Part shown: in pieces, positions 14,721-63,820 of the stretch
Numbering within the stretch: position 1 is the stretch's first letter
Layout of the letters: the number at the start of each line of letters is the position of its first letter
Assembly: GCA_000165345.1 (NCBI GenBank)
Contig: CM000433.1
Coordinates: 864,001-928,000 of the forward strand
Length of the DNA stretch: 64,000 bases
Direction: 5' to 3'
Translations under genes and position numbers: made by a program
The notes under the pieces: model-generated
Told to the model about the DNA's origin: nothing
The model's input: only the letters and a program-made list of their open reading frames with translations
The model's database searches: none

Positions 14721-16519
14721 CTGCATTTGACTTAAAGAGCGAAGACAGATATTTCCAGTAATTAGTGGGAATAATAATTAAAAACGTGGTAGTTTTAGAA
14801 GAGAAAATCGAGTATTTTCTTTTTATAGATCGAGTGTTGCATTATATATGTACATATATATATTATATTAAGAGAGAGAGACTATTTTATTAGGTTTCTT
14901 ATTGACTGGAATAAAAATAGAGCTAGATAATTACTACTGGACTGCGTACTTTTATTTTTTATACTATTTTTAAAGTATTTAGCAGAGTAAATTGAATTTT
15001 GTTGCAGATTTAAAGGGTGGAAAATCATTAATATTAAAAGCTATTAAGAACAAGTTTGAGGGATTTGTTTTTTTATTGAAAATAATAAATTATATTTGGA
15101 TATATATATATTTCTTCAGAATAGAATAATTTAACCACTTGTTAGTATATAAAGAAAAGAATAACTTGAAGTGAATTTTGTTATTTTTTTCTTATATAGT
15201 TGTATTTGGCTGGTTTTTTCCTGTATTTTCTTAAAAAGTCTACATTTTTGGAAAAGTTGAGACCAAATTGTTCAAATACTTTAAGAGTTTGTATTAGAAC
15301 AGATATATCGAATATAAATATTTTAAACAATGGCAAAATCTTACTCAACTAAATCTAAAGGAAGAGGTTCGTTGAAATTTGAAATACTCATCTTACGTTT
15401 GTTTCCTTCTTTTTTAAGAAATTCTTGTAATTGCAGTTAATTGGTTGGCTACATTATAGATTTTTTTTTTGTTTCTGGAATATATTAGAGATATTTCAAC
15501 GGAAAGAATTCGATTGACTTTTGGTGGCTTTTGTTTTCATCCTCTTTCTTTGCATTTTATTTTTCTTTTGAACTTATCCAATGAAATGTGATATTTCAAA
15601 TATTTTACCCTCTATTATTTTGGTCTCTTTCTCACTCTAGCTCAATATGGGAGATATCATTAATAAAGTGTAAAGTATTCTGGAATCATTGGAACGCTTG
15701 GGTGGTTGAATTAGAAGTTTGGGATTTGCAGGAAATTGTTAATGAAATCATTGACTTGCCGTATAAATTATGGGATGCGTTTATTCAGACAACCAAGTGG
15801 GATATATAAAATTAATAAAATAAACGTGATTATTTACTATCCTCACATTTTCTATACTCTAATTCATGTTATTGTTGATCTTTTGTATTTTAAATAAGAT
15901 CATTTACAGCTATCAGCAGAGAGTCATCTTTCTTTCCACTAACGCATTTTTCTCTTTCAATTCTACTATGAAGTGGAAAAAAAATGCTATTTAAAATTGG
16001 AATTCATAGTTTTTGGTAGGGCATATTGAATATATTTAATCCATTCAAATCAAAAAGAAAAAAAATTGGCATTTTTAAGCTATACATGCATTGGCGATAT
16101 GATAGTTTTTCTATTACGTCATTCATGTATTTTGAATACCGGTATTTGTGTGCAAAGTTGTGGGGATTTGGCACGATTTTTTTTTTTTTTCATTTGGTTT
16201 AATTTTGGGTATTATATTTTAATATTTTTCATTCTTTTAGGCTTGAATGAAATTATATTACGAATTATGGATTAAAGTAATTTAATACTACTCTTTAATT
16301 GGGGATATTAATGGAAATGATTTAAGTCAATTCAATCGTATTTCTTATTCCTATTTGCGAACAATTCCACAGTTATGTATACTATTAATGTAGTTTAATG
16401 GAGCCATACTAAATTAATATTTATTGCAATTCTAGAAAAAAAGAAGAAAGCAAAACGTGCAATGTGTATATATACAAGTATCATTAACTGACTTTTTTTT
16501 TTTTTTTTGAACATTATAG

Positions 16520-17332
16520 GTCAATCTCGCACTAATTCAAACTCTACAAGACGTATTGTCAGACTTGGTAACACAAATTTATCAAATTCGAGAAATACTT
16601 TGAACTCCGCAAATGGTAGCTCAAAGTCTAGAGTGATTAGAGGCCAAGGCGGTAGGAGAGTCAATACCAGCTTTGATAATCTCAATAGAAGGAAATTAGC
16701 ATCTTCCAGAAACTCCACTAATAGAGGCTCTTCACTTTCTAACAATGCAAGAAACAGAAAGGGAAGCATTGGGCGCTTTAATTCTTCTGGAAATTCAGGT
16801 GCCATTAGAAGAGGAGGTAGTGGTAGTGGAGGTAGGGGAAGAGGATTTAGAGGTAGGAACAGTGGTTCTAGAACATCATCTAGAGGAAGAGGAGGCGCAT
16901 CTGGAGGATTTAGAGGAACTAGACGCCCCCAGAAGAATAAAAACAGTACAAGCACAGCGTCATTGGTAAGTTATTTTTTTCTTTGAAGAAGTTCTATGGA
17001 ATTCCACATCCATTTTTTTTTTAATGGACTGGTTATAGCGCATGGCGCCAAATGTGGGATTACGGAATACAATTTCTCAACTATATTAACTTTTCACAAT
17101 TTCTTCCCCCTTCAAAAAAAAAAAAACTATATATATTATTTTTGATTTTTTTTCTAATAAACAGGATGCAGCATTAGACTCGTATATGGGAGCAGATGTT
17201 TGCAAGGCACGATTAGATTCACAATTAGATTCATACTTTTCTGGACAAAGTACTGGAAATGATAGCATGGTAACCGGCGACTCTTCGATGAATGTGGAGA
17301 GTAATCAGGAGCCAGTTTTGATCTCACTATAG
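16520..17332 (+). CDS. Aly/REF-like RGG-box mRNA-export adaptor, 3-prime part only: join(16520..16965,17165..17332). The 5-prime exon or exons are not resolved.
   Basis: ORF 16507..16986 is RGG/RS-rich (GGSGSGGRGRGFRGRNSGSRTSSRGRGGASGGFRGTRRP). It opens at a TTG directly after an acceptor, (T)17 gaacattatag ending 16519. A GTAAGT donor sits at 16966 and acceptor aataaacag ends 17164. That gives an in-frame last exon DAALDSYMGADVCKARLDSQLDSYFSGQSTGNDSMVTGDSSMNVESNQEPVLISL ending in TAG. The C-terminal tail LDxxLDSY (present twice) resembles the UAP56-binding C-box of ALYREF (LDAQLDAYNARMDTS). An RRM should lie in undetected upstream exons within 14045..16506. Confidence 0.5.
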
Positions 17333-62924: not shown

Positions 62925-63820
62925 TTCTCACTTCAGAATTGAAGTTTATTATGGCGAGTAAATAAAAAGGGAAAAAAAAAAGAACTTGGACCAACTCTTT
63001 CCTGCAAATTTAATAAACTTCTTGAATATCAATTTCAGTATTCAACTGTCCTTTTACTTAATAACTTTGGTAATAAACGAATGAGTAATATATAAATATT
63101 TTTATAAATTTTTTAAAATATTACTTATATTACTATAAAAGTTTCTTTTTCTTCAGGAAATTTAATTCATTAATTCAGAATTTTTCACATTTATTTGTAT
63201 TCACACAGGACTGAATAACTTTATCAATATATACCACTTTCTTCCGAAATATTATGTTACAATTTATATTATTTCAATTATTTTTTTTTTTTTTCTTAAA
63301 TTAATTAATTTTTAAAAAATATATTATTATTATTATTATTAGTATTATTATTATTATTCACTAATTATTTATCTTTACATAATTTTTTACACGTCATATA
63401 TTTTTTTTGTTTGCGTGTGGGGGGCTATACCGGTGTTTGCATGCTTGTCCACTTGAAATTATTTTACTCTATAAATAATTCAAAGTAAAAAATTAATAAA
63501 CTATTAGATTAAATAAAAAAAATTTAATTAGGAAATGAATAAATACACACAATAAATAAAGTAATTTGGAAATTTTTATTTTTTATCCTAGTTATTTTTC
63601 AGATTTCTTTTCCTGATTTTTCAAGCTTTAATTCGTATTTTTCTAAATTTTATCTAAATTTTATTCATCCTCACAAAGTGGCGCTCATTGGCGGCAACTT
63701 TATGAAATTTTATCTTAGAAATAGAAATAGCCAAGAATATGCAATCATAAGAATAACTTGATGTGATGATTAATCAAAATAAAACAGATCGATTTGTGTG
63801 TAGTGTCCAAAAAGAAAGCA

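Follow-up and report, generated by a model that had tools for sequence, protein, structure and literature searches.

We analyzed a 64,000-nt stretch of contig CM000433.1 (GCA_000165345.1, positions 864,001 to 928,000), hereafter the window, in which two short words recur in intergenic DNA: ATACCGG, whose full-strength form is the 10-bp palindrome ATACCGGTAT (box 1), and an 8-mer with an ACGT core (box 2). A preliminary description of this DNA, made from its letters alone, had treated five juxtapositions of the two words as copies of one composite element. Comparison of the sequences across Cryptosporidium species points instead to two separable, probably protein-binding words, an orphan palindrome and an ACGT-core site, that reside together in combinatorial RNA polymerase II (Pol II) promoter modules of the intestinal species; we consider this the probable explanation.

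The G+C content of the window is approximately 25% throughout, and long open reading frames (ORFs) of intron-poor genes are tightly packed on both strands. The 962-aa ORF at 20686..23574 encodes AP-1 gamma adaptin, which is 98% identical to the Cryptosporidium hominis protein, 89% to that of chipmunk genotype I, 78% to C. canis, 72% to C. felis, 65% to C. ryanae and C. xiaoi, and 59% to C. andersoni. The exact protein is encoded, among an identical set of neighboring genes, in GCA_015245375.1. Judged by these identities and by the shared neighborhood, the window is chromosomal DNA of the C. parvum group. Window coordinates correspond to those of the same-species locus (L001 of GCA_015245375.1) plus 10685, with indel differences between the two sequences. 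Genes were placed using the annotation of this locus and the ORF map. Non-coding DNA was taken as the 23.7 kb remaining after masking of ATG ORFs of at least 100 aa, and the count of each k-mer in it was set against that expected from an order-2 Markov model. The comparison between species used the syntenic regions of chipmunk genotype I, C. ubiquitum, C. canis, C. felis, C. ryanae, and C. andersoni.

Enrichment and form of box 1

With A/T runs set aside, the highest ranking specific 7-mer of the non-coding DNA was GCATGCA (23 occurrences versus 0.73 expected), the known AP2_1 site of ApiAP2 proteins, followed by GGCGCCA (14 versus 0.27), the known E2F site, and by ATACCGG in third place (11 strand-counts, representing nine distinct sites, versus 0.65). 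The next words were ACACGT(A), AATGACG, and ACGTCAT. Across the whole window, ATACCGG has 12 matches versus 0.74 expected, a count reached in none of 100 shuffles; these matches correspond to nine distinct non-coding sites and one coding site. TACCGG (13 versus 1.87) and ATACCGGYAT (7 versus 0.05) are likewise over-represented. The ATACCGG core is invariant and is followed by a weak YRT, with the perfect palindrome ATACCGGTAT present at two of the nine non-coding sites.

Restriction to non-coding DNA holds beyond the window. The non-coding/coding counts are 9/1 in the window, 5/0 in chipmunk genotype I, 3/0 in C. felis, 5/1 in C. ryanae, and 2/0 in C. canis, so that the four other intestinal species together have 15 non-coding copies and a single coding one. 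When non-coding 7-mers were ranked de novo in the relatives, ACCGGTA came third in C. felis and fourth in C. ryanae, and ACACGTA came second in C. felis.

The five composites listed in the preliminary description exist, with some corrections. Those at 27403..27429 (ATACCGGCATTTCATTAAATGACGTAA), 47619 (ATACCGGCATTTAAAAAATGACGTGTG), and 52642..52661 (TACGTGTAAAATACCGGTAT) read as quoted. The composite at 16113..16145 is ATACCGGTATTC-N10-AATGACGTAA in reverse complement, and the start given for it, 16124, omits the box 2 at 16113..16122. In the last one, ACACGTCAT at 63389..63397 and ATACCGGTG at 63427..63435 are separated by 29 nt. A single copy assigned to 27445 is actually CCGGTAT at 27459..27465, and two further copies, at 33741 (non-coding) and 18429 (within an ORF), had been overlooked.

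Location of the sites relative to genes

The box 1 sites and the box 2 sites close to them are listed below; a strand is given where one was assigned.

8093..8102, plus strand: box 1 ATACCGGCAT, in the divergent promoter between an Snf7-domain gene (7253..7870, minus) and a CTNNBL-domain gene (8411.., plus)
16114..16121: box 2 TTACGTCA (TTAC and TGAC half-sites), 14 nt from box 1 at 16136
16136..16145: box 1 palindrome ATACCGGTAT, 371 bp upstream of the main ORF of a FoP-domain gene (16507..)
18429..18435, plus strand: ATACCGG, the sole coding copy, within the coding region of a BSD-domain gene
27388..27395: box 2 TTACGTGT, 7 nt upstream of box 1 at 27403
27403..27412, plus strand: box 1 ATACCGGCAT, in a 235-bp bidirectional promoter
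27422..27429: box 2 TGACGTAA, in the same promoter as box 1 at 27403
27456..27465, minus strand: second box 1 of this (helicase) promoter, reverse complement ATACCGGAGT, 55 bp from box 1 at 27403
33738..33747, minus strand: box 1, reverse complement ATACCGGGAT, 263 bp upstream of a PH-domain gene at 34004
37942..37949: box 2 ACACGTAA, 29 nt from box 1 at 37979
37979..37988, minus strand: box 1, reverse complement ATACCGGTCG, in the divergent promoter 37385..38421
47619..47628, plus strand: box 1 ATACCGGCAT, in a convergent intergenic region
47637..47644: box 2 TGACGTGT, 8 nt downstream of the box 1 10-mer at 47619
52643..52648: ACGTGT half of box 2 (CATACGTGTA), 3 nt upstream of box 1 at 52652
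52652..52661: box 1 palindrome ATACCGGTAT, 410 bp upstream of a 677-aa gene at 53062
52684..52691: box 2 ACACGTAA, 22 nt downstream of box 1 at 52652
63389..63396: box 2 ACACGTCA, 30 nt upstream of box 1 at 63427
63427..63436, plus strand: box 1 ATACCGGTGT, in a divergent promoter whose two start codons lie at 62924 (minus, 503 bp away) and 63797 (plus, 370 bp away)
63389..63465: conserved non-coding block, with orthologues at approximately 18340-18415 of locus L008, 10705-10780 of L011, 19650-19715 of L009, and 18640-18700 of L010

Of the nine non-coding box 1 sites, eight have at least one start codon 85-600 bp downstream of them. Five of these eight occupy four divergent (bidirectional) promoters (8093, 27403 with 27459, 37982, and 63427), among them the helicase promoter, which separates the DEAD/ResIII helicase gene (ATG at 27308, minus) from a gene starting at 27544 (plus), and three precede a tandem gene (16136, 33741, and 52652). 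This intergenic placement, mostly upstream of protein-coding start codons, fits the Pol II regulatory module that the preliminary description had offered as one option. The coding copy at 18429 is probably not functional.

The other option raised at that time, a promoter of the proximal sequence element (PSE) type serving small non-coding RNAs (small nuclear RNA-type genes transcribed by Pol II or Pol III), would be attractive for the 47619 copy, which lies in a convergent region with no protein-coding gene to serve, and for the 63427 copy, which lies inside an unusually conserved block of 75 bp. A SNAPc-like factor could presumably be provided by a 4R-Myb protein. C. parvum encodes a protein of this kind (PMC12246861, Table 6). 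Most copies, nevertheless, are found in ordinary mRNA promoters at variable distances from the genes. Rfam searches at gathering and at permissive thresholds identified a single RNA gene in the 64 kb, a SNORD96-like small nucleolar RNA (snoRNA) located more than 1 kb from any copy, and a tRNA scan of the window found no tRNA. Because there is no RNA gene near any copy in these scans, we reject a small-RNA promoter, which appears highly improbable. The C/D box snoRNA (39210..39292, plus strand, 68.6 bits) lies between the ORFs 38422..39219 and 39445..40524 and appears to be intronic, given that orthologues annotate both flanking ORFs as one gene of 589-590 aa.

Box 1 could alternatively be an element other than a transcription factor site, namely, a chromatin organizer that sets nucleosome-free regions in the manner of yeast Reb1 or Abf1, a replication-related site, or an RNA element of 3' untranslated regions. 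The adjoining genes are functionally unrelated (Snf7, CTNNBL, helicase, PH-domain, AP-5-like protein, and others), so that a general rather than a pathway-specific factor fits, three or four copies lie 75-120 bp past a stop codon, and the yeast Reb1 site TTACCCG resembles TACCGG. However, the palindromy of the site, its occurrence on both strands, and the five copies in divergent promoters that contain no 3' end speak against action at the RNA level, and the 3' untranslated element is rejected on the grounds of palindromy and of these divergent copies. Nine sites per 64 kb are too dense for replication origins. The chromatin-organizing variant overlaps with the explanation favored here, inasmuch as such a factor would still be a sequence-specific DNA-binding protein at promoters. 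Altogether, we regard this group of alternatives as unlikely.

Several other words accompany box 1 in these promoters. An E2F-type GGCGCC lies 4 nt downstream of box 1 at 8093, and the resulting TACCGG-N4-GGCGCC (8094..8109) recurs in a non-orthologous C. ryanae promoter (L014, about 14600), which may be due to chance. TCCACA/TCCACT (for example, at 27478, 33725, 47576, 52619, and 63447) is the reverse complement of the unnamed motif A[T/A]G[T/A]GGA.A of Oberstaller 2013; it occurs no more than 45 bp from CATGCA in 11 of 26 cases, lies within the same distance of five of the nine box 1 sites, and is kept beside box 1 in several orthologues.

Conservation across Cryptosporidium

When the element was first described, conservation in orthologous intergenic regions was put forward as a check, and box 1 was indeed retained above matched words. 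Across the seven intergenic regions with orthologues, ATACCGG is kept in all 10 comparisons with close species, versus 0.32 for control 7-mers with at least four G/C from the same intergenic regions (p 1e-5), and in 6 of the 14 made with C. felis or C. ryanae, versus 0.11 for the controls (p 3e-3). In the distant species, retention of the box 2 words was 3/10 for ACGTGT and 1/8 for TGACGT, compared with the 6/14 for box 1. At the promoters at 27403, 52652, and 63427, box 1 is present in every intestinal species examined while the flanks diverge.

The 27403 site has an aligned box 1 in chipmunk genotype I, C. ubiquitum, and C. ryanae and falls in an alignment gap in C. felis, whose lone box 1 in the helicase promoter aligns with 27456..27465. 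The pair of sites in this promoter is spaced by 55-56 bp in the window, chipmunk genotype I, and C. ryanae; no box 1 was found in the orthologous helicase promoter of C. andersoni. The palindrome at 52652 is kept in chipmunk genotype I, C. canis, C. felis, and C. ryanae. The site at 16136 is kept in the orthologous region of chipmunk genotype I and is gone from C. felis and C. ryanae; the site at 33738 is kept in C. ubiquitum and is absent from C. felis and C. ryanae; the site at 37979 is kept in C. ubiquitum along with the neighboring ACACGTAA; and the site at 47619 is kept only by chipmunk genotype I.

The non-coding block of about 75 bp at 63389..63465 hardly varies among five Cryptosporidium species, and 30 consecutive bp of it show no substitution. 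It contains ACACGTCAT, the G-box GTGTGGGG, ATACCGGTGT, TGCATGC, and GTCCACTTGAAA, and it is conserved far beyond the neighboring proteins (the 677-aa protein encoded next to it shares only 46% identity with its C. ryanae counterpart). No Rfam match to this block was found. The 21-mer GGCTATACCGGTGTTTGCATG, which is invariant in five species, had no matches in a metagenome scan.

Chance, or derivation from a repeat or mobile element, has nothing in its favor other than the small copy number of the motif. No dinucleotide shuffle reached the observed counts, the flanks of the copies share only other short promoter words, and the motif is found at orthologous positions in up to five other species. 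The shuffles and the orthologous retention refute this explanation, which we assign a negligible probability.

Box 2 is a family of ACGT-core sites

Box 2 had been defined as (A)AATGACGT(A/G). The core of this definition is enriched (ATGACGT, 9 matches versus 1.86 expected in the window), but the definition proved too narrow when all non-coding ACGT words were examined, because these reveal a family in which the ACGT core is formed between two half-sites drawn from TGAC, TTAC, and (A/C)CAC. Members include TTACGTGT, TGACGTGT, TGACGTAA, ACACGTAA, and ACACGTCA. The corresponding pattern, (TG|TT|AC|CC)ACGT(CA|AA|GT|GG), has 13 non-coding matches versus 1.2 expected from dinucleotide shuffles and only 3 matches in coding DNA, although the coding fraction is 1.7-fold larger.

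An ACGT core with paired half-sites is the grammar of bZIP-type sites, such as the cAMP response element (CRE; TGACGTCA), the PAR-type site (TTACGTAA), and the G-box CACGTG. Box 2 shares this architecture at 13 of 13 sites and differs in that all 13 non-coding sites in the window combine mixed half-sites, with no homotypic palindrome among them: TGACGTCA, TTACGTAA, and ACACGTGT were not found in the window, whereas ACACGTGT does occur in chipmunk genotype I, C. canis, and C. ryanae. Part of box 2, CACGTA/TACGTG, was found by FIRE for two expression clusters (2013 supplementary table). One non-CCAAT bZIP protein is on the published list for C. parvum, with no link to the box 2 sites.

In the helicase promoter, the box 2 site at 27388 is present in C. 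felis and lost from chipmunk genotype I, and in the site at 27422 TGAC is unchanged in five species while ACGT is gone from C. ryanae (TGACCC) and C. felis (TGACGC). The half-site at 52643 corresponds to ACACGTGT in chipmunk genotype I and C. canis. The site at 63389 is kept in chipmunk genotype I, C. canis, and C. felis and is gone from C. ryanae.

Two separable sites rather than one unit

The claim that the juxtaposition of the two boxes is not due to chance is borne out: box 2 lies within 45 bp of seven of the nine non-coding box 1 sites, compared with 0.4 expected under uniform placement within non-coding DNA (p about 2e-8), and conversely, 8 of 14 box 2 sites have box 1 nearby. Control partners of box 1 score lower (CATGCA, 3/9; E2F, 2/9; G-box, 2/9; CACACA, 1/9).

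The further claim, that a single factor or pre-formed complex reads the whole unit of about 26 bp, was not upheld. It was founded on the copies at 27403 and 47619, which share ATACCGGCATTT, the orientation, and an offset of 17-18 bp to ATGACGT, the offset at 27403 being kept in chipmunk genotype I, C. ubiquitum, and C. ryanae, and it would also account for the strong overall association. The pattern originally proposed for a search, ATACCGGYATTT-N(3-12)-ATGACGT, matches these two copies and nothing else in the window (2 versus 0.00 expected), which makes them the exceptions. Across all copies, however, the edge-to-edge gaps between the boxes are 3, 7, 8, 9, 14, 22, 26, 29, and 30 nt; box 2 precedes box 1 in some copies and follows it in others, and both orientations are represented. 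At 47619 itself, the A-tract that forms the spacer is extended by 3 nt in chipmunk genotype I, so that TACCGG and TGACGT stand 11 nt apart in the window and 14 nt apart in the orthologue. In C. ryanae, box 2 is missing from the vicinity of all five box 1 sites, including those of the three deeply conserved promoters. Six of the 13 box 2 sites lack box 1 and are often found next to TGCATG instead. Thus, neither constant spacing and orientation nor joint conservation, the hallmarks of a fixed composite, was observed; a rigid unit is improbable, and the variable gap and orientation, the spacer drift, the C. ryanae promoters, and the lone box 2 sites indicate two separable sites.

Two of the box 2 sites that lack box 1 (23604 and 44548) share the 17-mer TATTACGTGTTTGCATG, in which box 2 and an AP2_1 site are joined with a constant spacing. 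GTGTTTGCATG occurs three times (23611, 44555, and 63433) versus 0.01 expected.

A model of the promoter modules and its limits

We propose that box 1 is an autonomous element and the putative binding site of a sequence-specific DNA-binding protein, which, because the site is palindromic, would probably bind as a dimer. Box 2, considering its bZIP-type half-site grammar, would probably be bound by a different factor. In the lineage from C. parvum to C. felis, the two boxes often stand approximately 10-40 bp apart, without fixed spacing or orientation, and, close to TGCATGCA (ApiAP2), TCCACWT, G-box, and E2F words, would make up combinatorial modules, many of them in bidirectional promoters, through which the bound proteins may affect transcription.

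Several observations weigh against this model of separable, co-resident words or narrow it. Its functional statements are drawn from enrichment, position, and conservation only. The analysis covers approximately 64 kb of one genome together with the syntenic stretches of relatives, a region that could be atypical, and its non-coding DNA is defined by a simple ORF mask. Earlier genome-wide motif screens do not contain box 1, so the word could be rarer genome-wide than in the window. C. andersoni, the sole gastric species compared, has no non-coding ATACCGG, in a sample of just 5.4 kb that is too small for this count to be interpreted. The uniform null used for the association ignores the general clustering of words in promoter cores (box 2 with CATGCA, 9/14; box 1 with TCCACW, 5/9), and since promoter words cluster in general, part of the box 1-box 2 signal is shared residence in such cores. 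Finally, the box 1 copy at 47619 lies between two 3' ends, where an mRNA promoter is not expected (75 bp past the stop of 47694..49430, minus, and 316 bp past the stop of a zf-C3HC4 gene). Antisense long non-coding RNAs of C. parvum reportedly start by preference near the 3' ends of sense genes, with E2F and AP2_1 motifs upstream as in mRNA promoters (bioRxiv 10.1101/2020.09.19.304907). Given these start preferences and the presence of TGCATGCA approximately 40 bp away, the 47619 copy may belong to the promoter of an antisense or non-coding transcript.

The zf-C3HC4 gene next to this copy (45199..47303, plus strand) aligns to an intact 706-aa orthologue of chipmunk genotype I in three reading frames; assembly indels, introns, or decay could account for the two frameshifts that the alignment implies for the window.

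The claim is modest: another short promoter motif, inferred from approximately 64 kb of sequence. Still, little is understood of how Cryptosporidium regulates its genes. Few motifs have been catalogued, and no site is known for many of the predicted DNA-binding proteins, including Myb and zinc-finger proteins and four ApiAP2 proteins without a binding signal. As the third-ranking specific non-coding word of the window, conserved across species whose neighboring proteins share only 45-65% identity, box 1 is a concrete, testable handle; it could serve as a 10-bp bait for a new regulator and as a feature in the design or dissection of promoters for transgenesis.

Comparison with known motifs

Several well-characterized sites have cores similar to box 1 and can be considered leads only: the plant dehydration-responsive element TACCGACAT, bound by DREB proteins of the AP2/ERF family, the Grainyhead/CP2 site AACCGGTT, the Myb site YAACGG, and the Reb1 site TTACCCG. 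Each is one or two positions away from box 1, and in each the defining base differs (CCGAC versus CCGGY, AACC versus TACC, and AAC versus ACC). The DNA-binding repertoire of Cryptosporidium consists mainly of AP2-domain and Myb-domain proteins (PMC12246861).

The motifs catalogued upstream of C. parvum genes comprise AP2_1 TGCATGCA, AP2_2 GCACAC, the G-box G.GGGG, E2F, GAGA, the CAAT-box, and the unknown MAACTA. Like these, box 1 is a short word enriched in the short intergenic regions and frequent in bidirectional promoters, and it sits among them in the window. ATACCGG has no match among the 25 consensus motifs of Oberstaller et al. 2013 (PMC3734150, Table 1), among the motif families of the 2025 review in a comparison with its Tables 3 and 4 that excludes the logos in figures (PMC12246861), or among the primary binding motifs that this review lists for 18 ApiAP2 proteins of C. 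parvum; none of the patterns in these tables contains ACCGG. The word does not appear in Mullapudi 2007, the main text of Oberstaller 2014, the 2025 preprint on ATAC-seq and polycistrons, or Hasan 2024, and a literature search for the word together with Cryptosporidium or apicomplexa returned apparently unrelated titles, probably primer sequences. The preliminary description had not recognized the two-box unit as a described promoter element, and box 1 is indeed absent from the Cryptosporidium motif literature compared here, with figure logos and Bankier 2003 outside the comparison.

The closest counterpart of box 1 comes from oomycetes. The same palindrome was found de novo as streme-5 of Plasmopara halstedii (ATACCGGTAT, upstream of 206 genes; PMC10031896) and as M94 of Phytophthora infestans (TACCGGTA; PMC3597505), and motif-9 of Phytophthora (GTACCGGTA) is an abundant conserved inverted repeat upstream of 1,284 genes (PMC3520976). 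The sister palindrome of TACCGGTA in P. infestans, TACATGTA, is not convincingly enriched in the window (5 versus 1.43 expected). The oomycete palindrome is identical over 10 bp to full-strength box 1, and the reports name no binding factor for it; it differs from box 1 in that it belongs to stramenopiles rather than alveolates, is tied to infection-stage and effector genes, and has no reported ACGT partner. That ATACCGGTAT is an ancient cis-element common to oomycetes and Cryptosporidium, read by one conserved DNA-binding protein, is a tentative and rather doubtful proposal. If it held, Cryptosporidium would have kept ATACCGGTAT from an ancestral repertoire, as it has E2F/DP, and box 1 would point to a large regulon not seen before or to a general promoter-organizing factor. 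The factor that may bind box 1 can be approached by comparison with the oomycetes, where the identical motif is likewise an orphan.

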